Notes: a model not told the origin generated them from the letters alone. Positions 25,677-54,412 are shown, counted from the stretch's first letter. The stretch is 64,000 nt of DNA from an uncultured Gammaproteobacteria bacterium (GCA_964531275.1 CAZHDZ010000004.1:3068-67067), one strand, 5' to 3'. Translations and numbers: made by a program.

Positions 25677-26822
25677 TCAATCATATTCTGAGTTATCCAT
25701 GCCATTACCCAACGATAATTGTTTGATTGTAGGAAAAGAAGACCCCATAATCCCCTCCAGCTCTCCTGCCAATTTTGCTACACTCATTTGTGCTTTTTCG
25801 ATCTGCATTTCCCGTCTTTTCCATATCCTCTCCATAGATCTTCTTTCGGAATCAAGGTCAATTCTCATCGTTTGAATACTTTCTACATATCCCTCGATCC
25901 TGTGTCTAAATGAATCACTTTGAAGATATTGGTATACCATCTCAAGCGTTTCATCTTTGCTTTCAGCAGCTGATTTCGCAGCAGCAGTTTGCATGATACC
26001 TCGCCTTACAAGAACCGCCAATGAAATGGCAAAACTATAATTAGTAACAAGCACACTTTCTATAAATCCAAAATTTTGGATATCTTTTGGCAATTCTTCA
26101 GATACCAAAATAGATGAAGTTGCACTTACTTTTCTAGCATCTTCTCGAAGCTTTGGCAACCATGCTGGAGACCATTTTGCCCTCTTTGTTTCCCAAAGAA
26201 TGGAACCTGCTACCCGACCCATAGAATTTCTGACAGTCTGGACAATATCTCCTCCCTTTGATCCTTTGGCAACCGGCTCGATTAAGTCTGTCGGAAAAGC
26301 TGCTGAAAGTTGTTCTTCCAAATCAACTTCAAGAACTTCTCCCTGAACCTGCTGACTTACTCCTGAGGCTTTACGATTTGCCTCCTCAAGCATTCTTTTA
26401 AGATTCTCTATCTGTGTCTCTTTTTCTTTTTCCTTAAATCTATGCTTTTCCTCTTCTTCTCGTACTATTTTTTCCTCTATTTTTTTCTTCTCTTCATCCA
26501 TACGTCTTTCGACATCTAACGTGATTTGCTTTTTTTCTTCTTCTACTTTTCTTTTTTCTTCTCGAAGTTCAATTTCTTTCTCACGAAATTCATCATTCTT
26601 CTTCTTTTGATCCATTAACTCTTTTTGCAACTGCTCTAAGTCCTGCGCGCTCTTTTCAGAAAATTCTTTTTTTGCTTTTTCTTCAGCTTCAGCTCTTGCT
26701 CGCTCTATGTCTTTTTTATGTACCATGTCAAATTCTGACTTTGCTTCTTCCTTCACCTGATGCAGTAATGCTTCAGAAAGTTCCATTTCTTTTCCGCAAT
26801 GCTTGCAAGTAATTGTATTCAT
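25677..26822 (-). CDS. DUF2130-like protein (N-terminal Cys zinc ribbon plus long coiled coil)
   Basis: N-terminus ITCKHCGKEMEL followed by a roughly 150-aa E/K-rich coiled coil and a conserved C-terminal domain. The architecture and N-terminus recall DUF2130. Confidence 0.55.
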   Translation of the reverse strand: MNTITCKHCGKEMELSEALLHQVKEEAKSEFDMVHKKDIERARAEAEEKAKKEFSEKSAQDLEQLQKELMDQKKKNDEFREKEIELREEKRKVEEEKKQITLDVERRMDEEKKKIEEKIVREEEEKHRFKEKEKETQIENLKRMLEEANRKASGVSQQVQGEVLEVDLEEQLSAAFPTDLIEPVAKGSKGGDIVQTVRNSMGRVAGSILWETKRAKWSPAWLPKLREDARKVSATSSILVSEELPKDIQNFGFIESVLVTNYSFAISLAVLVRRGIMQTAAAKSAAESKDETLEMVYQYLQSDSFRHRIEGYVESIQTMRIDLDSERRSMERIWKRREMQIEKAQMSVAKLAGELEGIMGSSFPTIKQLSLGNGMDNSEYD

Positions 26823-40954: not shown

Positions 40955-43096
40955 TTATTCTTCTTTAGGAACGAAGTTAGACTTTGATTTGATTTGCTCT
41001 TGGATCTGCAATGGCACTTCTTCATAGTGAGAAGGCTCCATGTATGCATTTGCACGACCCTGAGTAAGAGATCGGAGAGTCGTAATGTATCCTGAAAGTT
41101 CTGCAAGAGGAACAGTTGCAAGAATGATTCTTGAATTTCCTCTTTCTTCTGATCCTGAAATCTGAGCTCTCTTTGCAGAAAGATCTCCGATAACATCTCC
41201 CATAAATTCATCAGGAGTTGTAACTTCTACTTTCATTATAGGCTCAAGGAGTGTTACTTCTGCTTTTCTAGCACCTTGTTGGAATGCTTGTGATCCAGCG
41301 ATCTTAAATGCGATTTCCGAAGAGTCAACGTCATGGTAGGTTCCGTCATATAGTGTTACTTTTACATCAACCACTGGATATCCGAAAGCAACTCCACGCT
41401 CCATAGCTTCCTTAATACCCTTTTCAACTGGTGGTATAAATTCTGCAGGAATAGCTCCTCCCTTAATCGCATTTACAAATTCAAATCCTTCTCCTCGTGG
41501 CTTTGATTCAACAGTTATAAGAACGTGACCGTATTGTCCTCTTCCCCCCGTTTGTTTGATGTACTTAAATTCTGCGTTAGCTTTACCCTTGATTGTCTCC
41601 TTATATGCTACTTGAGGAGCACCAACATTTGCTTCAACTCCCATTTCTCTTTTCATACGCTCAACCATAATTTCAAGCTGAAGCTCTCCAACACCTGACA
41701 TGATTGTTTGTCCTGTCTCATGATTGATCTTAACGGTAAAGGTAGGATCTTCCTCCATGAGTCTTTTCATTGCTGCTCCCAATTTTTCTTGATCAGACTT
41801 AGTCTTAGGCTCAATAGCTAGTGAAATAACTGGATCTCTAAAGGTAATTTTCTGAAGAACGATTGGCTTTGCTTCATCACAAAGAGTATCTCCGGTTATT
41901 GTGTCTTTAAATCCAACGATAGCCACAATTTCTCCAGCAAAAGCTTCTTTAATTTCTTCTCTTTGATTTGCGTGCATAAGAAGAAGCCTTCCTACGCGCT
42001 CTTTGATGTCCTTTGTTGAGTTAAATGCATAGCTTCCAGATACGATCTTCCCCGAATAAATTCTGACGTAAGTAATTTTTCCTACATGAGGATCAACCTG
42101 AACTTTAAATGCAAATCCGGTAAATGCTTCTTCAGGATTTAAGTTTCTTGTCTCTTCTTGCTCGGTCTTTGGGTTCATTCCAGTTACTGTTTTAAGATCA
42201 AAAGGAGATGGTAGAAAGTCGATTACAGCGTCTAGAAGAGGCTGAACACCTTTATTTCGTAGAGAAGTTCCTGCAAAAACAGGAACAACTTTGTAAGCAA
42301 TAGTTGCTGCTCTTAATGCGGCTTTTAGTTCATCGTAACCAATTTCTTCTCCGTTGAGGTATTTTTCAAGTAAGGCGTCGTCAGTCTCAGCAATCTTTTC
42401 AATCATCTGTTCTCGGTATTTTTTAACCATGTCTGCCATTCCTTCAGGAATTTCATCTAGAACCTCAAAGCTAGCTCCCAATTCTTCTCCGCTCCAAATG
42501 TATGACTTCTCATCAAGAACATGATAAATTCCTTTAAAATCATTTTCTGCGCCAATTGGAAGTCCAATTGTGATCGGGTTTGCACCTAGTCTGTCTATAA
42601 CTGATTGGATTGTCTTTTCGTAATCAGCTCCTAATTTGTCCATTTTGTTAATAAAACAAATTCTAGGAACGTTGTATTTATCAGCCTGTCTCCAAACTGT
42701 TTCTGACTGTGACTGAACACCTTCTTCAGCATCAAGAACAGTAATTGCTCCGTCAAGAACACGAAGAGATCTTTCAACTTCAGCTGTAAAGTCTACGTGA
42801 CCGGGGGTATCAATAAGGTTGAATCTGTGGTCTTTCCAAAAAGTAGTAGTTGCAGCTGACACGATGGTGATTCCTCTTTCTCTCTCTTGGTCCATCCAGT
42901 CCATAGTTGCTGCTCCTTCATGAACTTCACCAATTTTATAAGTACGTCCCGTATAGTAAAGAATACGCTCAGAAGTTGTTGTTTTACCTGCGTCGATGTG
43001 CGCGATAATTCCAAAATTTCTAATTTTATCGAGTGCGACATTTCTGTCTTTTGTTACTGTTGTTTGTGGGGCTGTGCCTGCCATATTTTTAGTCAA
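40955..43096 (-). CDS. fusA: Elongation factor G
   Basis: [19 protein letters not shown] and DTPGHVDF. 713 aa across five domains. Confidence 0.97.
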
Positions 43097-43099
43097 AAA

Positions 43100-43125
43100 A
43101 ACGACCTCGAAAGGTCTTATGAGTT
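43100..43125 (-). terminator. Hairpin plus U-tract between the upstream ORF and fusA
   Basis: Minus-strand reading: AGACCUUUCGAGGUCG hairpin followed by UUUUUUU, immediately upstream of the fusA start. Confidence 0.35.
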
Positions 43126-43169
43126 ATTCTAACAAATTGAGGTTAAAAAAGAAAGTGGAAATTGATTTA

Positions 43170-43991
43170 TTAACCTGTCTGATCAACCGGTCTTGTTGGC
43201 TGACCAAATAATAATGCGTTGGTGTGAGTAAAATGCGCAACATGATCATATGGGACACCAGTTTCGCTTCGAACTGTTGCAACCAAATTATCAATGGAAG
43301 TTCTACTAATATTCTTCTCGAGGGTCATTCGATCAAGTTCACTTAAAGGACTTTTAGAACCTATTCTTTTATCATAAAACTCTTGAAGTGCTTCAATTTC
43401 ATAAGGCATCCAAGTACGAAGAGAGTGGGAAGCAGGCATTGCAATTGCACATGCTCGATAAAAATCCTCAATGGAACCCTCACCCCACAACAGAGAAACA
43501 TCTCTAATTGATTTTGATGAAGGGTAACCCTTACCGTAGTGGTAAAGATAAGATAGCGCTGCTTCCGTGAATGTGTCCCTCACATCTATTGCTTCTCCTC
43601 TCGCATCAGAAAGAGCCATTTCGGTTCTCATAGCCCTTAAGCTCCTACTAACGTCTGCATCAACTATGTCTAACTCATTAGCTATTCCACGGGAAAAATT
43701 TACTGTAGAAAGATGACCTTGCTGATTAGTTCCACGCACATGAACACCAACGTCTGCCAAGTGCTTATAGAATAGATCCTTTTTCGCTGAATTTCCTCTC
43801 AAAATCTCAGTCATTTCAAGCCTTGAACTAATTTTGTCCCCGCTTTTGAGTCCTGATCTAACTTGATAGACTGCATCTCTACCAACCATGACTCCCTTAT
43901 CTCGCATCATTTCAACAACACGAGCTGCCTCAATACTTTTGTTAGTTATAGGTATTCCCGCTTTTTTTTCAACTTCTTGAATTCGACTCAT
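43170..43991 (-). CDS. Hypothetical protein
   Basis: 273-aa ORF with no motif I recognise. It occupies the slot upstream of fusA where rpsG would normally be. Confidence 0.45.
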   Translation of the reverse strand: MSRIQEVEKKAGIPITNKSIEAARVVEMMRDKGVMVGRDAVYQVRSGLKSGDKISSRLEMTEILRGNSAKKDLFYKHLADVGVHVRGTNQQGHLSTVNFSRGIANELDIVDADVSRSLRAMRTEMALSDARGEAIDVRDTFTEAALSYLYHYGKGYPSSKSIRDVSLLWGEGSIEDFYRACAIAMPASHSLRTWMPYEIEALQEFYDKRIGSKSPLSELDRMTLEKNISRTSIDNLVATVRSETGVPYDHVAHFTHTNALLFGQPTRPVDQTG

Positions 43992-44120
43992 AGCCCGAGA
44001 TTATACCAAGGAATATTAAAAAAATAAACTATAGGTTAGTGAACTTCTTGATCCTTTCTCGAGTTCATAATCGGATAACGCGAGTTGCAAACTCGAATTA
44101 GGCGAGTATATACTACTTGC

Positions 44121-44429
44121 ATGGCCAACGTAATCCAGACATGTACTACCTGCTCTAATCAATTTCTTGTAATAGACCAGGAGCAAGCTTTTCTCCGTCA
44201 AAAAGGCTTACCAAATCCAACAAATTGCCCAAAGTGCCGTCAGGCTAGACGGCTTAAGCTTCGAGGAGAAAGAGTGCTTTACAAAACAGACTGTCAACAA
44301 TGCGGAAAGGAAATTGTGGTTTCGTACGACCCATCCAAAGTTACAAATAAAATACTTTGTAAAGAAGATTACGAAAAGTATTATGAAGAGCATGACCCAA
44401 TGATCACAGATCCCCTACCACAACTATGA
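44121..44429 (+). CDS. Zinc-ribbon protein (paired CxxC motifs)
   Basis: CTTCSN..17..CPKCRQ and a second pair ..CQQCGK..C. The ATG is at 44121 and the track ORF starts at TTG 44085. It overlaps the next gene with ATGA. Confidence 0.45.
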   Translation: MANVIQTCTTCSNQFLVIDQEQAFLRQKGLPNPTNCPKCRQARRLKLRGERVLYKTDCQQCGKEIVVSYDPSKVTNKILCKEDYEKYYEEHDPMITDPLPQL

Positions 44430-45346
44430 CAGCCGACACATTTTTTCTCGAATTACAAAAACTCATCACTCAGCAGCCGAAAAGACCTTCAAATACATTA
44501 AATTCCGAAGATTGCAAATATACAAATTTCGTCTATTACAGTACGGAGCTTACTAACTGCTTTGACTGTACTAATTCAACAAATGGAATATATCTTTATG
44601 ACTCTCACAACTGTGCAAATTGTGCTGATATGAATTTTTCCTTTGAGACAGAACTTTCCTATGAATGTGTAGACGCCTTTAAATGTTTTAATTGCAGCTA
44701 CATTGATGATTGTGGCAACATGACTGATTCTGACTTTAGCACCTGGTGCCTCAACTGCCATGATGTATTTGGTTGCTTTAAGCTCAAAAATAAATCGTTC
44801 TGCATATTTAACAGACAATTTACGGAAGAGGAATATCACGAAAAAGTAAAATATCTCAAGACTCTTCCTCCAGAGAAAATCCTTGCTGAGGTTGAAAAAA
44901 TAGCACTAACTCACCCCATAACTCAGACTAATGAGCATGATAATGAAAATTCAAGCTTCGGCAATTACATTTACTTTTGTAAAAATTGCTATCTCTGCTT
45001 TGATTCGACACACAATCAAGATTGTGGATACACGTATGACTCTAGCTATAATTCTAATTCTTTTGATATCTTACAGTCGGGCAATTCAGAACTATCCTAT
45101 CAAGTTTCAGATTCAGGTCAGATCTTTAATTCTGCATATGTCTTGTGGTCAAAGAATTGTCAGGACAGCATGTATCTTATTGATTGCCTGGACGTTAAAA
45201 ATTCAATGGGATGTGTTGCACTAAGCCACAAAGAGTATTGCTTCTTAAATCGACAACTTTCAAAAGAGGAATATGAAGCAATTACAAAACCATTACGTGA
45301 AGAATTAAAAACAAAATACTTCGAGTGGGGCAACTTAATCTACTAA
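44426..45346 (+). CDS. Cysteine-rich repeat protein (internal duplication; 24 Cys)
   Basis: Repeats of about 20-25 aa carry CxxC/CxNC pairs. Two halves end in similar modules (KNKSFCIFNRQFTEEEYHEKVKYL versus SHKEYCFLNRQLSKEEYEAITKPL). Confidence 0.5.
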   Translation: MTADTFFLELQKLITQQPKRPSNTLNSEDCKYTNFVYYSTELTNCFDCTNSTNGIYLYDSHNCANCADMNFSFETELSYECVDAFKCFNCSYIDDCGNMTDSDFSTWCLNCHDVFGCFKLKNKSFCIFNRQFTEEEYHEKVKYLKTLPPEKILAEVEKIALTHPITQTNEHDNENSSFGNYIYFCKNCYLCFDSTHNQDCGYTYDSSYNSNSFDILQSGNSELSYQVSDSGQIFNSAYVLWSKNCQDSMYLIDCLDVKNSMGCVALSHKEYCFLNRQLSKEEYEAITKPLREELKTKYFEWGNLIY

Positions 45347-47667
45347 ATAATAGGCTCAGGAAATTCCTCAGAAGAACTACCAGAAGCTCTTGCTGCAACT
45401 TTTCCACTGGTCCATCTCTGAATTTCATTCTCAACAGCAACTCTATTTTTGCTGTATGTCACTCGAGACTTATCAACGATTTCAATTGAGTAATCAAAAG
45501 TTGGCTTTGGAACACTAATCGTATTTGCTGAAAATGGCGTAGTTAACTTTCCATCAACGGACATTTTTACGTACATTTCTCGAGTATTAAGATTTATCAT
45601 GTCATCAGGCTTAAAGGTTGGAGAAAATTCTTTTGCCAAATACGCTGCGTCATCTCCCCCAACAGCAAAGACCACCATTGATCCTACGTTGCCAAATGCT
45701 GTGGCCTTTACTTCATCTGGAAGCTGCGCAATGTACTGGTGTGCAATCGTTAGATCCAAATGATATTTTCGAGCCTCGGAAAGGATACTCGAGAAAGCGT
45801 CCGTTGCAAAATTCTGGAATTCATCAACATAAAAGTAAAAATCACGCCTTTCCTCTTCCTTCATCTTCGCACGCGCTAAAGCTGCCTGCTGAATTTTTGT
45901 AATGAACATTGACCCTAAAAGTGCGGCGTTCTCATCTCCCAACTTTCCTTTTGAAATATTAATAAGAACAATTTTTCCCTCATTCATGAATTTTTCAAAA
46001 TCTAATGCATTCTTTTGTTGGCCAATCATATTCCTAACTATTGGATTTGAAATAAATTGCCCTACTTTATTAAGAATAGGAACAATAGCCTCATTGGAAA
46101 ACTGCTGGTTATAAGTCGCAAATTCATTTGTCCAAAAAGCTTTCACTACTGGGTCTTTTATTTGCATAACCACCTGCTGACGATAAGCAGTATCGGACAA
46201 AATTCTTGGAATACCTAAAATATTTGAGTCCGGGGTTTCAAGTAGTGCAAGCGTAATGTATCGAATAAGATGCTCCATACGTGAATTCCAAGTTGCAGCA
46301 AACAACTTCTTAAATATTGCTATAAAAAATACTGATAAATGTTGCCTTGCCTCATAGTCAGCAATAGGCTCAAGAGGATTAAACCCAATAGGAAAATCGC
46401 GGTCTGTAGGGTTGATATATACAACATCTTTTATTCTGTCCTTTGGAACATACATTAAAAGCTCATCTGCTAAATCTCCATGGGGATCTAAAAGACAACA
46501 TCCGTGTCCATTTTGTATATCTGAAATAAGCAGTAATTCCAAAAGCCTACTTTTACCACTTCCAGTTTTTCCAACTACATATAAATGTCTGCGTCTATCT
46601 AGCCGTTTTATTCCAAACTCCTTACCATCATTTCTATAATTAGTTACTCCAAATACGGACATTTCATTTGATTTAGTTTGGCCTACTATCGGCAAAATGT
46701 CTGGTGCCGGTGCTCTTTTTGACGTCGTATTAACAACGCTGCTAACAATAGCCCCTTTGTATGGGAAGTGATAGATAGTTGCAATCTCTGGAGTGGACCA
46801 CAAGTCCCCTTTCTCAAACGTACGGAATTTAAATTTCTTTGATGACTCAATACTCCATATTCCTGCTTTTTTAAGCTCATTTGTTGTACTTTTTAAGCTC
46901 TTAAGTAAATTTACCACACTCTCAAGCTTTGTCTTTGCAATCTGATGATCAACCGCCATATAGACAATTCTTAATTCTCCTTGGTACAGGCTGTGTGTAA
47001 GTTTTGCCTTCCCGGGATGGCCAGCTTCATAATTTCTAGACATAAGCTTAAATAGTGCCACATGAGAACCACGCTGCCACCATTTTGAGCCAACTCTTTT
47101 TAGTACCAATTGAATTGCAACTTGTTCTCCCCGATCGATCTTTGAGAACATTGCCGACAAATTTTTCAAAAGATCTTCTTCTAAATACTTGTATGTACTA
47201 ATTGGATACATACTCCCTTTTTTAAAATTTAGACCTGCAACGACAGATTTTTCAGGCTTAAAACTTTCAAAATAATCCGGAACAATTTCAATCTCAGCAT
47301 CTGCATATTGGGCATAGAGCTGGGATTCAATTGCGTTTTTCTGAACCTCAGGAAGAACAATATAAAAACTTAAGAACTGATTTATCGAAACCATCTCAAA
47401 GCTTATATGTGATCCTTGAGGCAATAATCTATGAATTGAGCGCAAGAAGCCTTCCATAGCATCTTCTTTTTGCTCATTTGATGGAGGAATTTTGACAAGA
47501 AGAACTACGTCCTTAAATTTCTCTTTTCTTTCTATTTCTTTTTTCAATTGTCTTTTTCTAAATAGGGGCTTGAGTGCGAAACCGAGGATAATTAGTGTAG
47601 CAATTGAGAAAATAAATACGCCTACTGATATGAAAGCTGTGAGCACTAAATCCAATACCTGTTGCAT
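45343..47667 (-). CDS. Membrane-anchored VirD4/TraG-family (type IV coupling protein-like) ATPase
   Basis: Two N-terminal TM helices. Walker A VVGKTGSGKS followed by LLDPHGDL, and Walker B FYVDEFQNF. 774 aa. Confidence 0.6.
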   Translation of the reverse strand: MQQVLDLVLTAFISVGVFIFSIATLIILGFALKPLFRKRQLKKEIERKEKFKDVVLLVKIPPSNEQKEDAMEGFLRSIHRLLPQGSHISFEMVSINQFLSFYIVLPEVQKNAIESQLYAQYADAEIEIVPDYFESFKPEKSVVAGLNFKKGSMYPISTYKYLEEDLLKNLSAMFSKIDRGEQVAIQLVLKRVGSKWWQRGSHVALFKLMSRNYEAGHPGKAKLTHSLYQGELRIVYMAVDHQIAKTKLESVVNLLKSLKSTTNELKKAGIWSIESSKKFKFRTFEKGDLWSTPEIATIYHFPYKGAIVSSVVNTTSKRAPAPDILPIVGQTKSNEMSVFGVTNYRNDGKEFGIKRLDRRRHLYVVGKTGSGKSRLLELLLISDIQNGHGCCLLDPHGDLADELLMYVPKDRIKDVVYINPTDRDFPIGFNPLEPIADYEARQHLSVFFIAIFKKLFAATWNSRMEHLIRYITLALLETPDSNILGIPRILSDTAYRQQVVMQIKDPVVKAFWTNEFATYNQQFSNEAIVPILNKVGQFISNPIVRNMIGQQKNALDFEKFMNEGKIVLINISKGKLGDENAALLGSMFITKIQQAALARAKMKEEERRDFYFYVDEFQNFATDAFSSILSEARKYHLDLTIAHQYIAQLPDEVKATAFGNVGSMVVFAVGGDDAAYLAKEFSPTFKPDDMINLNTREMYVKMSVDGKLTTPFSANTISVPKPTFDYSIEIVDKSRVTYSKNRVAVENEIQRWTSGKVAARASGSSSEEFPEPII

Positions 47668-47698
47668 TATCTAAGTATACAACGGACCCACACACTTC

Positions 47699-49228
47699 TC
47701 ACTCCCACTCCATTGTGGCCGGAGGCTTTGTTGAAATATCGTATACAACCCTGCTGACATCTGGCACTTCATTGACAATTCTTGATGAAATAGCCTGAAG
47801 GACATCATAGGGTAATTTTGCCCATGTGGATGTCATAACATCATTACTCTCAACAACCCTCAGAGCAACAACTTCAGAAAAGCTTCTCCCATCTCCCTTC
47901 ACAGCCGTAGACATTGCCCCCGTCATAACCGGAAATGAAATAAATACTTTATCCAAGATTTTTGCCTTTTCTAATTCCTCAAGAACTATAATGTCTGCTT
48001 TTTCCTCCATCATAAGTCTTGCTTCTGTTACCTCGCCACGAATTCTGACAGCATATCCTGGACCAGGAAAAGGTTGCTTATATACAAATTCTTTAGGTAG
48101 GTCCATCTTAAGCCCAATTGCCCTTACTTCATCTTTGTAAAATTCTCTTACCGGCTCAAGCAACTTCATTCTCATATGCTTTGGGAGTCCCCCGACATTG
48201 TGGTGTGATTTTATCCTTGCGGCATGTTTTGTGCCTTTACTCTCAATAACGTCTGAATAGATGGTTCCTTGCATCAAAAACTCTGGTTTTATTCCGCTTT
48301 TTTCAAGCCGATCCAACTCCCTTTCAAATATTTCGACATAATGTCTTCCAATGATTTTTCGTTTTGTTTCTGAATCTTTAATACCTTTTAAAAGAATTAG
48401 CATTTCTGCCCTAACGTCAATTATTGTAGGTTTTATTCCGATATGTTCAAAAATTGCTTTTACATGCTCTGTTGTACCATGACGCATAAGTCCGTTATCA
48501 ACATATATCGGGTAAAAATGGTCTCCGATAGCTTTTGCGGTTATAACGGCAGCGACGGTGCTATCAACTCCGCCGCTTACGGCACCAATCACATAACTAT
48601 CTCCAACTTTTTCCTTTATGTCTTCTACCAATGCAAAAGGGGAAATTGTTTGCTTGCCAACTTTAATGCCACAAATGCCTATAAAATTTCTGAGAAGCTC
48701 TAACCCAAAATCCGTATGCTCTACTTCAGGATGAAATTGAAGCCCAAATACCTTTTTCTTTACATCCCCAACAATCGCAAATTTCATATTCTTTGTAGTA
48801 CCAAAAACTTTCATGCCATTTGGCACCTTTACTATTTCGTCTCCATGGCTCATCCAAGCTGTAAATCTAGGCAATACGTTTTTGCATAGTTGAGCCTCTT
48901 TTCCTCGAATTGAAAGGTCTACCTTGACCGGACCATACTCTTTTCTTCCCTGGACTACTTTTCCTCCATTTAAATGCGAAATGAGCTGCAAGCCATAACA
49001 AATACCAAGAAGGGGAATGCCAAGTGAAAAAATTGCAGGATCAATTGTTGGAGCACCATTTTCATATACAGATGCGGGGCCACCAGACAATATAATACCT
49101 TCAGGCTCTGGATACATGCCAAGACGGAATTTATGAGGCTCAGTTATTGTAACCTGCACACCTAATTCCTTTATCCGTCGCGCAATTAAATGAGTTGTTT
49201 GGGATCCAAAATCAATAATTAAAATCAT
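47699..49228 (-). CDS. guaA: GMP synthase (glutamine-hydrolysing)
   Basis: Class I GATase N-terminus (GICYG) and ATP-PPase SGGVDSTV motif. Confidence 0.93.
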   Translation of the reverse strand: MILIIDFGSQTTHLIARRIKELGVQVTITEPHKFRLGMYPEPEGIILSGGPASVYENGAPTIDPAIFSLGIPLLGICYGLQLISHLNGGKVVQGRKEYGPVKVDLSIRGKEAQLCKNVLPRFTAWMSHGDEIVKVPNGMKVFGTTKNMKFAIVGDVKKKVFGLQFHPEVEHTDFGLELLRNFIGICGIKVGKQTISPFALVEDIKEKVGDSYVIGAVSGGVDSTVAAVITAKAIGDHFYPIYVDNGLMRHGTTEHVKAIFEHIGIKPTIIDVRAEMLILLKGIKDSETKRKIIGRHYVEIFERELDRLEKSGIKPEFLMQGTIYSDVIESKGTKHAARIKSHHNVGGLPKHMRMKLLEPVREFYKDEVRAIGLKMDLPKEFVYKQPFPGPGYAVRIRGEVTEARLMMEEKADIIVLEELEKAKILDKVFISFPVMTGAMSTAVKGDGRSFSEVVALRVVESNDVMTSTWAKLPYDVLQAISSRIVNEVPDVSRVVYDISTKPPATMEWE

Positions 49229-49321
49229 AATGGGGGACAGAGAAAATGGAGCGTTTCATAATTTAATATATTCGAATCACATATCTGTGTCAATTGCGTA
49301 TGTGTTTGGTACAATACCTCT

Positions 49322-50419
49322 ATGTTTGAAAGTAGAATAAGACTTCTTCAAGATGCCCTTTCTGATCACGAAATAGACGCTCTTCTTATTACATCTTCTT
49401 ATAATATTGCGTACCTTTCGGGTATCAATGCGTTTTCCGTTGAAGAACGTGAAGCAAAAATACTTATAACAAAGACCTCCATATACCTTTTTACCGACGC
49501 ACGATATACGGAAATGGTCAAAGAAAAAGCACCATTTATAGAACTTTCTGAAATTTCCTCAAATAATCCTTTTTCCAAGGCATTTCAAAAAGTAGTTGAT
49601 AAAGAACATCTTAAAGAAATCGGCTTTGAAGAGGAGTCAATAACGTATAAAGAAGCTGCTGATCTGGAGGAGAAATTTGGCAACTTGGAATTTATTCCAA
49701 CAGTTGACGTTGTAGAGAATATACGAACAGTAAAAGATGGTGAGGAGGCAGAACATGTTAAAAAAGCTTGCGCTCTTACTGACAAAGCGTATTCATTTAT
49801 CCTTAACTCTCTTGTTCCTGGCGTTACTGAAACTGAAGTCAAGGCACAATTAGAAAATTTTATGCGGCTTGAAGGAGGAGATCTTGCTTTTTCCTCAATC
49901 GTTGCCTTTGGGAAAAATTCAGCAATACCTCACCATTTATCTGATGAAACAAAACTTCAAGATCAAGACGTTGTACTTCTTGATTTCGGGGCAAAAATTG
50001 GCGGATATTGTAGCGATATGACTCGCACTGTATTTGTTGGAAAACCGACTGAAGACATGCACAAGATTTACCATGCAACCCTTGAAGCACAAGAAGTTGC
50101 AATTGATTATATCCGTACTCACATGGATGAAGGTTTTGAACTCAAAAAAGCTCACGAACTTGCAAATAGTCATCTTAATAAGCTTGAATTCCCTGATATC
50201 CCACATAGCTTAGGGCATGGTGTTGGGCTACAAGTCCATGAAATGCCAGTAGTATCACCTTATTCTGATGAAAAATTAGTCCCGGGAATGGTAATTACCA
50301 TTGAACCTGGTATATATATGCCAGGTCTTGGCGGTGTAAGAATTGAAGATACAGCAATCATTACAAGTGATGGCATTGAACTTCTCACAAAATCCCCTAA
50401 AGGGTTGACTGCCATTTAG
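49322..50419 (+). CDS. pepP: M24 family Xaa-Pro aminopeptidase
   Basis: Metal-ligand blocks DFGAKIGGYCSDMTRT, HSLGHGVGLQVHE and the IEPGIY region. Confidence 0.85.
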   Translation: MFESRIRLLQDALSDHEIDALLITSSYNIAYLSGINAFSVEEREAKILITKTSIYLFTDARYTEMVKEKAPFIELSEISSNNPFSKAFQKVVDKEHLKEIGFEEESITYKEAADLEEKFGNLEFIPTVDVVENIRTVKDGEEAEHVKKACALTDKAYSFILNSLVPGVTETEVKAQLENFMRLEGGDLAFSSIVAFGKNSAIPHHLSDETKLQDQDVVLLDFGAKIGGYCSDMTRTVFVGKPTEDMHKIYHATLEAQEVAIDYIRTHMDEGFELKKAHELANSHLNKLEFPDIPHSLGHGVGLQVHEMPVVSPYSDEKLVPGMVITIEPGIYMPGLGGVRIEDTAIITSDGIELLTKSPKGLTAI

Positions 50420-50440
50420 AATTGTTGTATTTTAATTGAC

Positions 50441-51136
50441 GTGAACAAAGTCCCATTTGTCGTTATAGGCATACTCTTATTAACAGCAGTTTTTGTTGCA
50501 GCATTCTCAAGCAATGACGGGAAAAATCCTTTAGACGCATTGGGAGATGTGTCTCCAACTCCAGCACTTAAGCTTAATAACACTCAAACAGATCAAAACG
50601 CACAGCAACAAGCCCAACAGCAACAGCAGCAACAAGCCCAAACCCCACAAGTTGTTCCAACCACACCACTATCTGATATACTATCTGCCACAGTGGTTAC
50701 CATACATACAGCAAAAGGAGACATTGTTCTTGACCTATATCCAAATGATGCTCCAAAAACAGTTCAAAATTTCGCAACACATGCCAAAAAAGGCTACTAC
50801 AATGGTCTTACATTCCATAGGGTAGAACCTGGATTTGTTATTCAAGGAGGGGATCCAAATGGCAATGGAACAGGAGGCTACTCTATTTTTGGCGCAACTT
50901 TTGCGGATGAATTAAATCCTGATACTGAAAGTTACAAAGCTGGCTATCAAGAAGGAGTACTTGCCATGGCAAATAGAGGACCAAATACTAATGGATCACA
51001 ATTTTTCATTATGCTTGCAGACAATACAACGCTCCCTAAAAATTACACAATATTCGGCAAAGTTAAGGAAGGTATGGATGTAGTTAAGCAAATCGTAAAA
51101 GGAGATAAAATGACCTCAGTTGAAGTAATCGAATAG
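50441..51136 (+). CDS. ppiB: Cyclophilin-type peptidyl-prolyl isomerase, membrane-anchored with Q-rich linker
   Basis: [15 protein letters not shown] and [14 protein letters not shown] motifs. N-terminal TM helix and a poly-Gln (CAG/CAA) stretch. GTG start. Confidence 0.85.
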
Positions 51137-51209
51137 GAAGTCATTGTTGTCCTTCGGACAGAATTTGTCCTGCGGCCATAAACTGCCCAGCGTTGAAGTA
51201 ATTGAATAG

Positions 51210-51650
51210 TTACTGAAACAAGAATTTTACAAAGAACCACACCGAAGTAATTACCCCAATAACACTTAATGATTGCCAGGTCGTCTGCATAATGATCCAA
51301 GACTCTTCGCCCTTAAACCACTTTTTTGGCCACAATGTATGAGGAGCATTTCTATGTGCGTGTGCAAATTGCTCCAAGAACCAATAGATTTGTTCACCGA
51401 TTGAACGAACTGTCCAGAAAACTGAAAAAATAAGGAGAAAAAGACTCCATTGCTGGAAAAGAAGACAAAAAAGTGTAACTACGGCAAAGAAAAGTCCAAA
51501 TACGACAGCGTCAATCCACACAAATACCCCAATAGGCAAGAACCATCTTACCAATCCAAAAGGATTCTTCTTTTTTCTTATGCCAAGAACAAGTGCAACT
51601 ACCGAATAACAAAAGAAGACCACAAGAAATATATTTGAAAAAATATTCAT
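51210..51650 (-). CDS. Hypothetical integral membrane protein
   Basis: 146 aa with four predicted TM helices. Confidence 0.4.
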   Translation of the reverse strand: MNIFSNIFLVVFFCYSVVALVLGIRKKKNPFGLVRWFLPIGVFVWIDAVVFGLFFAVVTLFCLLFQQWSLFLLIFSVFWTVRSIGEQIYWFLEQFAHAHRNAPHTLWPKKWFKGEESWIIMQTTWQSLSVIGVITSVWFFVKFLFQ

Positions 51651-51748
51651 AAAGTAAGGGGAATTATATCAAAAATGCGGTTTTGTTAGGTTTTTGTGAG
51701 GTAGCGGTGAAGCACAGCCCTACCCTCGGGCATACAATAGCCTTAATT

Positions 51749-53407
51749 ATGAGTGAATTCGCACCAACCATAGCACAACAACCAATAACAAATGGTGCTC
51801 CCATTCGACCTATGGGAGCTGAGAATTTTTCCGGCTTTTCCTCGAAGGGAATGTTCAAGGATATCCGCTCTAATTCAAGTGAAGGAATTATTGACATCAA
51901 TAATGGAATGGGCAAAGATTCCGAATTTCAAAGATCAGAATCTTTTGAATCCCAGGCCCAAGACAGCCAATCACTTTTTGACACCTCAAACCCTTATCAA
52001 GAGCAAGGAATTGGAAATTTTGATCAGCCCACACAAAGTACTGAAACTAGCTCAATCCAATCTATAGAAGAGCCAGCAAACGTCTCTAGAAATAAAGATA
52101 AGGAGTTCACCGACATGCTTTCTAACTCGACAGTGCTCTGGGAAAGTCCAACTTCAAAATTAAAAGGATACGGGACTCAAGAGGTGCCTGCTCAAAGAGT
52201 GGAAAAACCAACTCTTCTAAAAGAAAACGCAGAACACAGCATTCAGTCATCAGCGGGAGCTCACATAGAGACATCAAATAAGGGTTTGGTAGAGACTACA
52301 GCGGTGCCTGAGGGCCATGCAGAAGCATCTCCACAACAAGAAGCTGCAACAACAGGAAGAATTGTTACTATTCCAACGGAATCTGAACAAACTCCTACCT
52401 TACAAGCTCCAGTTGAAACAATGGATCAAAAAAAGGCTGAAGCCACCCAGACACAACCTGAAGGTGGTATTTCAACACAAACCGAAACTGAGAATACAGC
52501 ACTTTCTCAATCTCAACCAGAAACAAACATCAAAGAAAAATCAAAAACAATAACCAATGGCATAGCTATTACGGAAATAAATACTAAGCCAACAACTGCG
52601 CCCCAACTTCAACCTGAAGTTCGTACGCAAACAGAAACCACAACAACTACCACAGCTCTTGAAGCAGTAAGAGAAGAGGTAAGGCTAATGCCCGATACAA
52701 AAGAGGTAACAGTTACTCTCACTCAACCGTTGCCGGAGTTACAAAAACAAACAAAAACCCAAGTAATGGATAAAGAGGCTCTTGAGAAAATACTCGCAAC
52801 AGAAAAAGTTCAAAAAACTAAGGCTCAAACCGAAAAGGAGATTGATACAAAAGCAACTCCTACCATGAAAGGGGAAGAGGCAGCAGATCCTGAAAAAGAG
52901 GATGAAGATGAGACAACTATTAAGATTACAAAAGCTTGGTTTGAAGAAGATGTGGTAGCCAATAAAAATAGGAGACTAGAAATAGTTAAGGCATACGCTC
53001 TAGTGCACTATAAGTGGCTTAGACAGTACATTTCAAGAATCGATGGGTCAACGGTAGCTGATACTATTAAAAAACATCGGGATCGCGAAAAACTAGAGAG
53101 TCAATCGATAAAGCGTATTCAACGGGATGGTTCAGTTGATCCATTTGCAGAAACCATTGAAAAAGCAAAGGATATTGAAGCACTAGATGAATTAGATTCA
53201 TTATTGGACGATGCCGAGAGAGAATTCTCCGGGACTAACTTTACCGCTAAACCAACTCAAGAAATTATGGATGGAGAACAAATAGATCGTGTTCACAACG
53301 GAGAAGAGGAATTCTATGCAAATCTTGACGGAGAAGAAGTAAAAGTCATCATGAATGGAGCAAGAAATGCCAAAAAACCTACGTTTATAAGGGTCGAAAT
53401 GGAATAA
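51749..53407 (+). CDS. Hypothetical acidic low-complexity protein (Q/E/T-rich)
   Basis: The track ORF starts at TTG 51683. The ATG at 51749 is preceded by TACAAT. The middle is low-complexity and the C-terminal about 160 aa is more complex. Confidence 0.45.
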   Translation: MSEFAPTIAQQPITNGAPIRPMGAENFSGFSSKGMFKDIRSNSSEGIIDINNGMGKDSEFQRSESFESQAQDSQSLFDTSNPYQEQGIGNFDQPTQSTETSSIQSIEEPANVSRNKDKEFTDMLSNSTVLWESPTSKLKGYGTQEVPAQRVEKPTLLKENAEHSIQSSAGAHIETSNKGLVETTAVPEGHAEASPQQEAATTGRIVTIPTESEQTPTLQAPVETMDQKKAEATQTQPEGGISTQTETENTALSQSQPETNIKEKSKTITNGIAITEINTKPTTAPQLQPEVRTQTETTTTTTALEAVREEVRLMPDTKEVTVTLTQPLPELQKQTKTQVMDKEALEKILATEKVQKTKAQTEKEIDTKATPTMKGEEAADPEKEDEDETTIKITKAWFEEDVVANKNRRLEIVKAYALVHYKWLRQYISRIDGSTVADTIKKHRDREKLESQSIKRIQRDGSVDPFAETIEKAKDIEALDELDSLLDDAEREFSGTNFTAKPTQEIMDGEQIDRVHNGEEEFYANLDGEEVKVIMNGARNAKKPTFIRVEME

Positions 53408-53419
53408 AAATCAGGAAAT

Positions 53420-53899
53420 CTAGAATCTGAAGTGAGCGAATGCTTTGTTGGCATCTGCCATTTTATGTACTGAATCTCTCTTTCTTACAGCTTCTCCTTC
53501 ATTATTAAGAGCAGCAATTATTTCTGAAGCTAATTTTTCTGAAAAAGTCTTGTAATCAGTGTTTGGTTTCTTTCTTGTAGCGTCCAAAAGCCATCGGATT
53601 GAAAGAGAAATTTTTCTAGCTCCTCTTACTTCCATAGGAACCTGATATGCAGCTCCTCCTACTCTTTTTGCTCTTACTTCTTGCTTAGGTGCTATTGATT
53701 CAAGAGCTTTTTCAAAAGATTGAATTGGGTCCATACCTTTTTCCTTGAGGATATCGAGCGCATTATATACATTCTTCTGAGCAACGGTCTTCTTACCGTC
53801 TTCCATCACATTATTGATAAATTTTGTAAGTAATGTAGATCCATAAATAGGATCTGGGATCATTTTTCTTTTTTCAACTGTTTTATGTCCTCTTGGCAT
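53420..53899 (-). CDS. rpsG: 30S ribosomal protein S7
   Basis: MPRGHKTVEKRKMIPDPIYGS N-terminus and overall S7 pattern. Confidence 0.93.
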   Translation of the reverse strand: MPRGHKTVEKRKMIPDPIYGSTLLTKFINNVMEDGKKTVAQKNVYNALDILKEKGMDPIQSFEKALESIAPKQEVRAKRVGGAAYQVPMEVRGARKISLSIRWLLDATRKKPNTDYKTFSEKLASEIIAALNNEGEAVRKRDSVHKMADANKAFAHFRF

Positions 53900-53986
53900 A
53901 TTTTATAGGCAATTTTCAAATTTCAAATTCCAATTTTCAAACTATTGGTTTGATCAATTGGTATTTAGTTATTGATTATTTACAGC

Positions 53987-54412
53987 TCAAGCTTGAGCTG
54001 CGCCGCCTCCTTTCTTTGCTCCATACTTACTTCTCGAAGTCTTTCTTCCCTGAACTCCAGCAAGATCAAATTTACCTCTTACTAAATGGTATTTTACACC
54101 TGGCAAATCCTTTACACGACCGCCACGTACTAATACGATTCCGTGCTCAGCTAGATTGTGTCCAACACCCTGGATGTATGCTGTTACTTCTTCTCTATTT
54201 GAAAGCTTTACTCTTGCTACTTTTCTAAGAGCTGAATTAGGTTTTTTTGGAGTCATTGTTCTTACCAAAGTCACAACCCCTCTTTTTTGTGGAGATGGAT
54301 TTTCTGTATATGCTCTATTTTTTGCATTAAAAATAGTTCGCAAACCAGTTGCTTTGATTTTCTTGCCTTTTTTGGCTCTTCCTTTTTTAACTAATTGATT
54401 AAGTGTTGGCAT
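53987..54412 (-). CDS. rpsL: 30S ribosomal protein S12
   Basis: [12 protein letters not shown] ... [11 protein letters not shown] ... conserved blocks. Confidence 0.95.

Follow-up and report, generated by a model that had tools for sequence, protein, structure and literature searches.

A zinc-finger/solenoid protein pair encoded beside a divergent VirD4/TrwB-type coupling ATPase in Patescibacteria

Coupling proteins and related motors

Coupling proteins (T4CPs) such as TrwB of R388, VirD4, TraD and DotL combine a P-loop nucleotide-binding domain, with Walker A, D-P-x-G-D and Walker B motifs, with an N-terminal membrane anchor and a conserved C-terminal tail that follows an acidic linker. The tail of the F-plasmid TraD docks on TraM, and that of DotL binds adaptors, among them the zinc protein DotN. 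The same architecture is found in a 774-aa ATPase encoded in the window, as we call the whole 64-kb stretch of DNA analyzed here, which comes from an ultra-small bacterium of the Patescibacteria (CPR). However, this ATPase is very remote from the T4CPs, has one hydrophobic segment where these typically have two transmembrane (TM) helices, contains an extra N-domain of ~290 aa (DUF8128), and has no relaxase, VirB4 or type IV secretion system (T4SS) genes nearby. Moreover, its candidate partner, a zinc-finger protein plus a solenoid protein, is seen with no known T4CP. No VirB4, other T4SS or relaxase gene is present among the large ORFs of the window, and neither virB4 nor a relaxase gene recurs in 81 loci around solenoid genes.

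According to the parts of the literature drawn on here, VirD4-type homologues are abundant in Patescibacteria (5,713 in 2,918 genomes), and 148 of the 5,713 lie near virB4 (Quinonero-Coronel et al. 2025, PMC12102498). The window ATPase is close in kind to these "orphan" homologues, which are mostly far from virB4. From the same parts, T4SSs are widespread in Patescibacteria and essential in one cultured species, and their cluster contains no recognisable coupling protein (PMC10633639; PMC12102498). The initial annotation of the window regarded such ATPases as often the only remnant of a DNA-transfer machine, a view that does not fit the wide distribution of T4SS loci in Patescibacteria, where coupling homologues are usually located elsewhere (PMC12102498, in the part used). 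No neighbour of zinc-finger or solenoid type is mentioned in that part of PMC12102498; what the present analysis adds is the conserved candidate partner, the FPEPII tail and the ATPases that bear a zinc finger.

ATPases of Bacillus phages (phage G gp156, SPO1 gp27.4 and phrog_5156) are homologous to the window ATPase over the N-domain and the nucleotide-binding domain. With the ATPase as query, the alignment to phage G gp156 covers 85% at 25% identity (E 7e-36), and phrog_5156 matches with an E-value of 4e-83. However, beside these phage genes lies a gene for either a VirB4/TraG-like ATPase, as in phage G (gp155), or a Replic_Relax protein, as in SPO1 (gp27.3), and phage genomes yielded no solenoid homologue. 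HerA-partner assemblies (HerA-NurA, and HerA-Sir2 or HerA-DUF4297 in defence) follow a similar logic, that of a hexameric pump with one dedicated partner gene, and DUF87 scores above its cut-off in the window ATPase too. In contrast to these systems, the window module has no NurA, Sir2 or DUF4297 partner and lies in the conserved core genome, and T4CP models fit its ATPase at least equally well.

The phage homologues beside relaxase-like or VirB4-like genes, the PHROGs families matching both the ATPase and the solenoid protein, and weak PADLOC matches of the ATPase (mad8, E 3.9e-11; HerA, E 6e-7) could indicate a module for anti-phage defence or of a mobile element, with a HerA/FtsK-like ATPase as its basis. 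We consider this very unlikely, because the genes have a core-genome location and are conserved at close to the level of EF-G, no nuclease or other effector domain was found, PADLOC detected no known defence-system component beyond the ATPase matches, and the solenoid protein had no match in 50,697 phage genomes or IMG/VR.

Gene layout and the coupling-type ATPase

The three annotated ORFs are all present in the window. On the plus strand, the gene for a 102-aa zinc-finger protein (zf102; 44121..44429) and that for the 306-aa solenoid protein (44426..45346) share the ATGA start/stop overlap described previously, located at 44426-44429, which is predicted to couple their translation. The ATPase gene (45343..47667) is encoded on the minus strand. 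It had been described as meeting the solenoid gene head-to-head with a 4-nt overlap; the overlap exists, formed by the TAA stop of the solenoid gene (plus strand, 45344-45346) and the TAG stop of the ATPase gene (minus strand, 45343-45345), but the genes are convergent and meet tail-to-tail. The window ATPase and solenoid genes are therefore not co-transcribed.

An alternative upstream start for zf102, TTG at 44085, was rejected in favour of ATG 44121, which gives 102 aa, as in homologues. The TTG falls within a promoter-like -35 element. The element in question, TTGCAA-18-TATACT (44085..44114, plus strand; consensus match only), stops just 6 nt 5' of this ATG, so that the zf102 mRNA may be leaderless, and an imperfect 25-nt inverted repeat (44062-44086 / 44090-44114) overlaps it. 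Another promoter-like match, GTGAGA-17-TATACT (47674..47702, minus strand; also by consensus only), is located 6 nt 5' of the ATPase ATG. Across the region, matches of this kind are as frequent as chance predicts.

Judged by its sequence, the 774-aa protein is a divergent coupling ATPase of the VirD4/TrwB type, in line with the VirD4/TraG-type assignment made earlier. Three Pfam models score above their cut-offs: DUF87 (38.5 bits, cut-off 23.2), TrwB_AAD_bind (30.6 bits, cut-off 20.5) and TraG-D_C (22.7 bits, cut-off 22), and T4SS-DNA_transf passes in paralogues. When the family profile was compared with the PDB, TrwB was the closest solved structure (E 1.9e-5 over ~40 residues), and DotL was also among the best matches. 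The best score against the NCBIfam VirD4-like CD1115/TraD families was 53.8 bits, far under their cut-offs of 250-650 (250 for the family concerned). In public records, orthologues are named [quoted passage not shown] or "DUF87 domain-containing protein". The nucleotide-binding domain (45448..46605, minus strand) contains the annotated Walker A GKTGSGKS at residue 366 (nt 46549-46572, minus strand), DPHGD at 394 (nt 46474-46488, minus strand) and Walker B DEFQNF at 615 (nt 45808-45825, minus strand), and all three are invariant in 36 homologues.

Instead of the two TM segments annotated before, the N-terminus contains one continuous hydrophobic segment (residues ~4-37), enough for one helix; a Kyte-Doolittle scan places the anchor at residues ~5-36 (47560..47655, minus strand). 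It is followed by the basic stretch RKRQLKKEIERKEKFK, which, by the positive-inside rule, points to a cytoplasmic location of the remainder. The DUF8128 N-domain (PF26449; residues ~55-340; 46648..47505, minus strand), placed from the Pfam record of the 100%-identical protein P0310, is also found in Bacillus phage G gp156, but other Patescibacteria have soluble ~500-aa paralogues that lack it. Many of the ATPases of group 2 are without a membrane anchor, and a membrane-coupling role would therefore not be general. At the other end of the protein, a variable acidic linker leads to the C-terminal tail FPEPII-COOH (45346..45363, minus strand). The pattern [DE]FPEP[ILM][ILV] forms the C-terminal end of 23 of the 24 group-1 ATPases, and ..EP[LM][IV] that of the soluble group-2 ATPases; the tail looks like a candidate short docking motif.

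The zinc-finger and solenoid proteins

The zf102 protein is basic (pI 8.2), and its residues 7-44 match zf_Tbcl in Pfam (PF13451; E 1.4e-8, 34.9 bits versus a cut-off of 24). The paired CxxC motifs reported before correspond to C8/C11 and C36/C39, which are predicted to form a treble-clef zinc finger, and are followed by C58/C61 and C80. These last three cysteines belong to a degenerate CxxC-x17-CxxC-like finger in the second half of the protein, in which Asp replaces the fourth Cys. This half resembles the zf_Tbcl_2/TIGR04272 finger, but its scores are under the cut-offs of both zf_Tbcl_2 (PF23477; 18.6 bits versus 27 in Pfam) and TIGR04272 (15.8 bits versus 36 in NCBIfam).

The 306-aa protein is acidic (pI 4.7, net charge -19) and contains 21 cysteines (6.9%) rather than 24 as first counted. 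It consists of two homologous modules with an 18-residue repeat, separated by a helical linker, and self-alignment bears out the internal duplication noticed previously (residues 146-291 versus 1-146, 31% identity, E 5e-18). In the N-module solenoid (residues 28-117 in the 18-residue register; 44507..44776, plus strand), five 18-residue rungs of the form x-D-C-x14-C create an Asp ladder at position 2, with Cys or Ser at every third position; its AF2 pLDDT is 80-93. The family's most conserved stretch is cap motif 1, FGC-x8-C-IFNRQ-x2-E-x2-Y, which was defined by conservation (residues 115-137; 44768..44836, plus strand) and has the invariant columns F115, G116, C117, K123, C126, I127, F128, N129, R130, Q131, E134 and Y137, with Cys conservation of 99% at C117 and 100% at C126. 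The N-module is duplicated in the C-module solenoid with cap motif 2 (residues 171-283; 44936..45274, plus strand), whose cap is GC263-x8-C272-FLNRQ..KEEY. The two caps read KNKSFCIFNRQFTEEEY and SHKEYCFLNRQLSKEEY.

The initial annotation could not place this protein in any family, and we likewise found no Pfam, NCBIfam, PADLOC or PDB sequence match, and no significant Foldseek match in PDB or BFVD. A known ferredoxin or DnaJ-type family did not appear in Pfam or NCBIfam at E-values up to 1, while a genuine DnaJ of a related locus, used as positive control, was readily detected. The non-significant Foldseek lists are filled by LpxA, LpxD, GlmU, gamma-carbonic anhydrase and the insect antifreeze protein TmAFP (1ezg), a beta-helix with Cys ladders. 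The solenoid shares with left-handed beta-helices (hexapeptide repeats) and TmAFP an 18-residue turn of three 6-residue sides and small Cys/Ser residues in stacked ladders; it differs from them in its two-module structure and in the unique FGC..C.FNRQ..EEY cap that each module carries. Foldseek comparisons with beta-helix folds gave E-values of at least 0.05 and TM scores of at most 0.15 (E at least 3.5 for LpxA, LpxD and GlmU), and Pfam detected no Hexapep. A hexapeptide-repeat left-handed beta-helix was rejected as the identity of the solenoid, the 18-residue period alone being in common. An earlier suggestion that the protein is a surface component is unlikely, as neither a signal peptide nor a hydrophobic segment is present (maximum KD19 0.9), and in a cytoplasmic protein disulfide ladders are improbable.

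The proposal that this is a metal-binding repeat protein would hold at best by half. Against it speak the CxxC pairs of the rungs: most of these solenoid Cys columns are 50-75% Cys, with Ser, Ala or Thr as substitutes in homologues, and the four cysteines of neighbouring pairs showed none of the covariation across solenoid homologues that CxxC...CxxC metal sites should have. In its favour are ~11 cysteines that are 81-100% conserved and grouped at the two module caps (C96, C108, C111, C117 and C126; C188, C191, C245, C254, C263 and C272), among which C254, C263 and C272 tend to be present or absent together (phi up to 0.82). These cap cysteines, the total of 21 in spite of a cytoplasmic location, and the CutA1 genes (a divalent-ion tolerance family) that adjoin ATPases in 4 loci are consistent with a protein devoted chiefly to metal, as a zinc or iron-sulfur store, chaperone or redox protein. 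Given the freely exchanged, non-covarying rung sites and the lack of a match to ferredoxin, DnaJ or another metal-site family, such a main function is nevertheless improbable.

Conserved linkage and possible function

The zf102 and 306-aa proteins are the split form of a large family of about 3,000 clusters at 50% identity, which also includes zf+solenoid fusions, found in five independent clusters (P0005, P0273, P0122, P0274 and P0276), and ~560-aa zf-solenoid-zf proteins. In an AF2 model of one fusion (pTM 0.77), a pLDDT of 90-93 continues unbroken from the second finger into the first solenoid rungs. All 80 genome loci recovered are from Patescibacteria. Identities among orthologues are 59-74% for the ATPase, 54-71% for zf102 (directly 5' of the solenoid gene in group-1 loci) and 43-65% for the solenoid protein, whose length is fixed at 305-309 aa; EF-G of the same genomes is 72-76% identical. 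By this comparison, the trio appears to be under strong purifying selection. Solenoid-family paralogues are old (median identity 39%) and form tandem arrays of 2-5 in Paceibacteria-type genomes.

The neighbourhood might have proved unconserved, but in relatives the linkage to the ATPase is strongly conserved. The ATPase gene lies at most 6 kb from a solenoid gene in 47 of 81 non-redundant loci, a count that overstates the independent observations because the loci are phylogenetically related. Besides the zf/solenoid family, the ATPase family alone recurs in these 81 loci. Within the window's clade it is convergent within 200 nt in 20/24 loci, 15 with the identical 4-nt stop overlap, and all neighbours other than the trio change. 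Starting from the ATPase, three of three orthologues adjoin a 306/307-aa gene and a zf gene, with every other neighbour different. In other Patescibacteria, genes for ~560-aa zf-solenoid-zf proteins form compact cassettes with one or two paralogous ATPase genes in the same orientation. Some of these ATPases bear a zf_Tbcl_2/TIGR04272 finger (E 1.5e-9), the type of finger that flanks the solenoids. It is this linkage that is new, the abundance of coupling-type ATPases in Patescibacteria being known already, and it provides a candidate partner for many of the "orphan" coupling ATPases.

The adjacency could be without functional meaning, the solenoid protein being an independent housekeeping factor (for example in scaffolding or assembly) encoded in compact core operons. 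The window genes are convergent and their trio sits in the core rpoBC-rpsLG...fusA region; the long form of the solenoid gene is found between purL and purQ of a purL-purQ-purF operon in 6 loci, none of which has an ATPase gene inside 6 kb, and also between dnaK and dnaJ. The purL-purQ loci suggest that the solenoid family may not need the ATPase, or may rely on a copy encoded at a distance. Yet an ATPase gene would be expected in only ~2% of loci by a rough estimate (random 12-kb window, 1-Mb genome, about two copies), compared with 47/81 observed, the trio stays together while all other neighbours change, and the linkage is kept in two gene orientations with a finger type in common. We therefore find a meaningless adjacency doubtful.

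In our preferred reading, which we hold tentatively, the zf/solenoid pair would serve as the dedicated cytoplasmic partner of the ATPase in a Patescibacteria-specific three-gene module. The ATPase, presumably hexameric like its family, would be held at the inner membrane face by its single N-terminal helix, and zf102 and the acidic solenoid protein, a single chain elsewhere, would form one cytoplasmic unit. As a receptor or adaptor, this unit may recognise the cargo of the ATPase, be it protein or nucleic acid, and hand it over to the motor, with contact through the zinc-finger modules and/or the FPEPII tail.

Alternatively, the zf/solenoid proteins could themselves be the cargo, as effectors or substrates recruited by the ATPase and exported via the T4SS of Patescibacteria. 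The ATPase is of the coupling-protein type, the paralogues in tandem arrays of 2-5 might represent a set of effectors, and, in the parts of the papers cited, the widespread T4SS, essential in one cultured species, has a cluster without recognisable coupling protein (PMC10633639; PMC12102498). We nonetheless judge export unlikely: both sequence and length show high conservation and the paralogues are old rather than fast-evolving, folded, Cys-rich proteins with predicted bound zinc fit poorly with an unfolding-dependent channel, a signal peptide is lacking, the ATPase partner is soluble in many cases, and 148/5,713 coupling homologues lie near virB4 (PMC12102498, in the part used). The slow, length-constrained evolution seen in the sequences favours an adaptor or partner over a secreted substrate.

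More speculatively, and with considerable doubt, the zf/solenoid proteins and coupling-type ATPases could constitute an unrecognised, T4SS-independent machine, found in Patescibacteria only in this sampling, in which interchangeable solenoid adaptors of a new fold class, capped by zinc fingers, direct a motor of the FtsK/VirD4 superfamily to nucleic-acid or protein clients. The dnaK-dnaJ, purL-purQ and fusA settings hint that, in such reduced cells, the machine could serve core housekeeping.

Gene layout and genomic setting

The genes encoding the 102-aa zinc-finger protein (zf102), the 306-aa cysteine-rich repeat protein (the solenoid) and the 774-aa ATPase are located at positions 44121-44429 (plus strand), 44426-45346 (plus strand) and 45343-47667 (minus strand), respectively, in agreement with the ORFs proposed in the initial annotation. 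The best start of the zf102 gene is the ATG at 44121, giving 102 aa, because orthologues have the same length and the TTG at 44085 lies inside a promoter-like -35 hexamer. The TGA of zf102 and the ATG of the solenoid gene overlap as ATGA (44426-44429). The solenoid and ATPase genes lie tail-to-tail, with stop codons TAA at 45344-45346 (plus) and TAG at 45343-45345 (minus), and hence are convergent, not “head-to-head” as they had been described.

Two divergently placed promoter-like elements are present at 44062-44114 and 47674-47702. Both contain the -10 hexamer TATACT exactly 6 nt before an ATG, and therefore both mRNAs may be leaderless. In front of the zinc-finger gene, an imperfect inverted repeat of 25 nt and CGAGTT direct repeats overlap the element and could serve as an operator. 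No CIRCE heat-shock operator was detected within the window, and no Rfam RNA in the region 43000-48000.

The window has a GC content of about 38% and carries rpoB-rpoC-rpsL-rpsG, fusA, tuf and the S10-spc ribosomal gene set. The three-gene module is part of the core genome; it lies next to guaA, in the stretch from rpsG to fusA. We considered whether it might be a defence system, which is unlikely given its core-genome location and its high conservation, and this reading was set aside.

The str operon is split in the window (40955-54412): rpsL-rpsG (53420-54412) and fusA (40955-43096) are separated by a gap of about 10 kb that holds, besides guaA and the module, a gene for a 574-aa low-complexity Thr/Gln/Glu-rich protein (51683-53407), a cyclophilin-like gene and a Xaa-Pro peptidase-like gene. 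Between fusA and the module lies a 273-aa ORF (43170-43991, minus), also present in an identical Logan contig, for which neither a family match nor a homologue in any related locus was found; it was rejected as a part of the module and is apparently an orphan gene specific to its lineage. At a distance of 18 kb from the module (25677-26822, minus) lies the gene of a 381-aa DUF2130 protein with a CxxC motif at its start; in one related locus (L003) the equivalent gene (245-1390) immediately precedes the zinc-finger gene.

The 80 homologous genome loci all come from Patescibacteria (CPR) MAGs. Such records are often titled “uncultured Gammaproteobacteria bacterium” or “Candidatus Saccharibacteria” (loci L007, L009, L012, L013, L017, L019, L021, L024, L026 and L028), and these titles are unreliable for taxonomy; we take the Gammaproteobacteria-titled records to be mislabelled bins.

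The zinc-finger and solenoid proteins

Residues 7-44 of zf102, a basic protein (pI 8.2), match the Pfam family zf_Tbcl (PF13451, “probable treble clef”) above its cut-off (E 1.4e-8), with C8, C11, C36 and C39 as the cysteines of this first finger. The second finger is degenerate and resembles zf_Tbcl_2 / TIGR04272 (CxxC-x17-CxxC), scoring below the cut-offs; it retains C58, C61 and C80, and its fourth position is Asp.

The initial annotation could not place the 306-aa protein in any family, and our searches led to the same outcome: there was no match in Pfam, NCBIfam or PADLOC, and none for a 34-sequence profile against PDB sequences, even at E up to 10. Foldseek searches with two AF2 models (pLDDT 68 and 77) against the PDB, and with the second model against BFVD, did not give significant matches either; only the zinc-finger part on its own resembled phage “zinc-ribbon” proteins. 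The protein has many relatives. The 90% cluster database contains 283 close ones, all annotated as “hypothetical”, which nearly all have a length of 305-309 aa and an identity of about 50%. When 1.84 billion cluster representatives were searched with a profile, 3,084 representatives matched at E up to 1e-3; the family is thus very large (about 3,000 clusters at 50% identity), and it has no Pfam model. Many of the matching representatives are long forms of 540-600 aa, composed of an N-terminal zf_Tbcl-type finger, a double solenoid, a conserved segment “EWGEFFP..SPFGYNET” and a C-terminal zf_Tbcl/zf_Tbcl_2 finger pair. Moreover, in five clusters (P0005, P0273, P0122, P0274 and P0276) the 102-aa and 306-aa proteins are fused exactly into one chain of 408-412 aa. 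Together with the long forms, these fusions show that the pair in the window is a split form of a zf-solenoid protein.

Residues 39-285 of the solenoid also match the PHROGs family phrog_15341, whose function is unassigned (E 1.9e-6); a tblastn search of 50,697 GenBank phage genomes and a pattern scan of IMG/VR found no solenoid. A reading as a ZPR1-like chaperone, which combines a zinc finger with a repeat domain, was dropped for want of sequence support.

The internal duplication noticed earlier in the 306-aa protein was recovered (residues 146-291 against 1-146, 31% identity, E 5e-18); its cysteines number 21 instead of 24. In the N-terminal half, rungs begin at residues 28, 46, 64, 82 and 100 in a clean 18-residue register with the pattern x-D-C-x14-C, that is, an Asp ladder with Cys/Ser at each third position. 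Each half is closed by a cap motif, FGC117-x8-C126-IFNRQ-x2-E-x2-Y and its twin GC263-x8-C272-FLNRQ..KEEY, and these are the most conserved motifs of the family.

Among 95 homologues the rung cysteines are Cys in 50-75%, the alternatives being Ser, Ala and Thr, and they lack the covariation expected of CxxC...CxxC metal sites, a negative result for stacked metal sites in the rungs. Eleven cysteines are 81-100% conserved in the same set (C96, C108, C111, C117, C126, C188, C191, C245, C254, C263 and C272), and C254, C263 and C272 covary. We therefore read the 306-aa protein as a probable narrow solenoid in which small Cys/Ser residues line the core; each cap may hold a genuine metal site. Its earlier description as a metal-binding repeat protein would apply, at most, to the conserved caps rather than to the replaceable rung cysteines, and there is only partial support for a role purely as a metal protein.

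The protein contains neither a signal peptide nor a hydrophobic segment. With a pI of 4.7 and a net charge of -19 it is acidic; the idea that it might act as a DNA mimic regulating a DNA pump was considered and set aside. AF2 modelling reached a pLDDT of 68 with 34 sequences, and a pLDDT of 77 with a pTM of 0.77 for the natural fusion P0005 (96 sequences); in the latter model, the second finger and the first rungs form one unbroken stretch with a pLDDT of 90-93.

The ATPase and its relatives

The 774-aa protein is, by its profile matches, a divergent VirD4/TrwB-type ATPase. It passes the Pfam cut-offs for DUF87 (38.5 bits), TrwB_AAD_bind (30.6) and TraG-D_C (22.7), its paralogues additionally pass T4SS-DNA_transf, and scores against the T4CP equivalogs of NCBIfam fall far short of the cut-offs. 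The best solved relatives of a 36-sequence ATPase profile are TrwB (E 1.9e-5), HerA (6.5e-4) and DotL (7.5e-4). These results uphold the VirD4/TraG-type assignment made from the sequence, as do the motifs on which it was based (Walker A GKTGSGKS at 366, DPHGD at 394 and DEFQNF at 615), which are invariant across 36 homologues. The two transmembrane segments proposed were not recovered: there is a single hydrophobic stretch at residues about 4-37. The ~290-aa domain between this anchor and the NBD is PF26449 (DUF8128) on the record for an identical protein. In public records, orthologues are named [quoted passage not shown] or “DUF87 domain-containing protein”.

A variable acidic linker followed by the peptide [DE]FPEP[ILM][ILV]-COOH closes almost every anchor-bearing ATPase; in the window the peptide is FPEPII-COOH (45346-45363, minus), and a C-terminal peptide of this kind is near-invariant in the family (L001-L031, L030-L080). 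Soluble ATPases of ~500 aa end in ..EP[LM][IV]-COOH, likewise after a variable acidic linker, and the zinc-finger-bearing paralogues end in ..VPEDVLRKILE instead. The FPEPII-COOH tail looks like a candidate docking peptide.

Orphan homologues of this kind have been noticed before, and the ATPase belongs to that class. One survey (Quinonero-Coronel et al. 2025, PMC12102498) reports 5,713 VirD4-type homologues in 2,918 patescibacterial genomes, about two per genome, most of them away from secretion genes and only 148 of the 5,713 near virB4; the Southlakia homologue is not essential, and these ATPases may, in the authors' words, be “exapted for other functions”. An essential T4SS cluster without a recognisable coupling protein has been described (Wang et al. 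2023, PMC10633639). The published orphans are consistent with our assignment of a divergent coupling-type ATPase.

Homologues that include the N-domain are also encoded by Bacillus phages. Phage G gp156 is 25% identical to the ATPase over 85% of the query (E 7e-36), and SPO1 gp27.4 and phrog_5156 (E 4e-83) are further examples. The phage G gene lies beside that of a TraG/VirB4-like P-loop protein (L087, gp155-gp156), and the SPO1 gene beside that of a Replic_Relax (relaxase-like) protein (L088, gp27.4-gp27.3). The function of these phage genes is apparently unannotated.

Linkage and a candidate partnership

All ORFs of 81 non-redundant loci around solenoid genes were clustered. The only widely recurring families were the zf/solenoid family (196 members) and the ATPase (56 members, in 47 of the 81 loci); the compared loci are related to one another, so these counts are not independent events. 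In the window clade (solenoid 43-65% identical), the ATPase gene is convergent within 200 nt in 20/24 loci, with the identical 4-nt stop overlap in 15, confirming that the neighbourhood is conserved in relatives. Searching from the ATPase side, all three orthologues examined (3/3) were adjoined by 306/307-aa and zinc-finger genes, and all other neighbours differed. The three-gene unit is therefore conserved. Identity among orthologues is 59-74% for the ATPase and 54-71% for the zinc-finger protein, compared with 72-76% for EF-G in the same genomes.

Paceibacteria-type genomes keep the linkage although the architecture has changed. There, one or two ATPase genes share their strand with the genes of two to five long-form paralogues, which have a median identity of 39% and are therefore old duplicates. 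The ATPases are often soluble, ~500 aa, and lack the anchor and N-domain. Others, of ~700-770 aa, have a C-terminal extension with a zf_Tbcl_2 / TIGR04272 finger (E 1.5e-9); fingers of this type also flank the solenoids. In one clade the cassette adjoins chaperone genes in 7 loci (L040, L056, L057, L065, L067, L078 and L080), with all genes on one strand. The gene for DnaK (Hsp70) precedes that of the zinc-finger-bearing ATPase in L040, L065, L067 and L078, and the gene for DnaJ immediately follows that of the short ATPase in L056, L057, L065, L067, L078 and L080. L065, L067 and L078 have the complete arrangement DnaK - ATPase-zf - solenoids - ATPase - DnaJ, and the other four have DnaK or DnaJ at only one end. 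A 90-aa winged-helix protein is encoded inside the cassette in L057, L065, L067 and L080.

From the conserved linkage we infer that the zf/solenoid unit would be the ATPase's dedicated cytoplasmic partner, acting as an adaptor or receptor for a cargo that may be DNA, RNA or protein; the fingers and/or the FPEPII tail may provide the contact. The tail of TraD binds TraM, and DotL binds adaptors that include the zinc protein DotN; both cases are precedents for this proposal. Other observations argue against a partnership: the window genes are convergent; no VirB4, relaxase, pilin or competence gene was found among the large ORFs of the 64-kb window; and in six loci (L035, L043, L050, L051, L054 and L082), which lack an ATPase within 6 kb, one to three long-form zf-solenoid-zf genes separate purL from purQ in a purL-purQ-purF-purN operon. 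That the zf/solenoid proteins are secreted cargo is less likely, in view of their slow evolution, their predicted zinc-bound fold and the existence of soluble ATPase variants. It is doubtful that they and the ATPase form an autonomous, previously unrecognised machine.

Patescibacteria make up a large share of bacterial diversity and are the most poorly annotated bacterial phylum. Literature searches on DUF8128, zf_Tbcl/PF13451 and zinc-ribbon or cysteine-rich proteins of Patescibacteria found nothing relevant, and the literature that can be searched contains no description of the zf/solenoid family, of its fold or of its conserved coupling to these ATPases. The orphan coupling ATPases thereby gain a specific, testable candidate partner in a large undescribed family, and the question of their role is now open to direct experiment. 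If the pair is an adaptor-motor system, it would represent a new way of targeting an FtsK/VirD4-type pump.

Other neighbours were also seen. In cassettes with long forms and ATPase paralogues, a small gene of the divalent-ion tolerance family CutA1 (L030, L036, L037 and L061) or a DUF5674 gene (L056, L063 and L078) is often located immediately upstream of an ATPase paralogue. The window module adjoins guaA and that of L001 adjoins carA/carB; like purL-purQ, these are nucleotide-synthesis amidotransferase genes.
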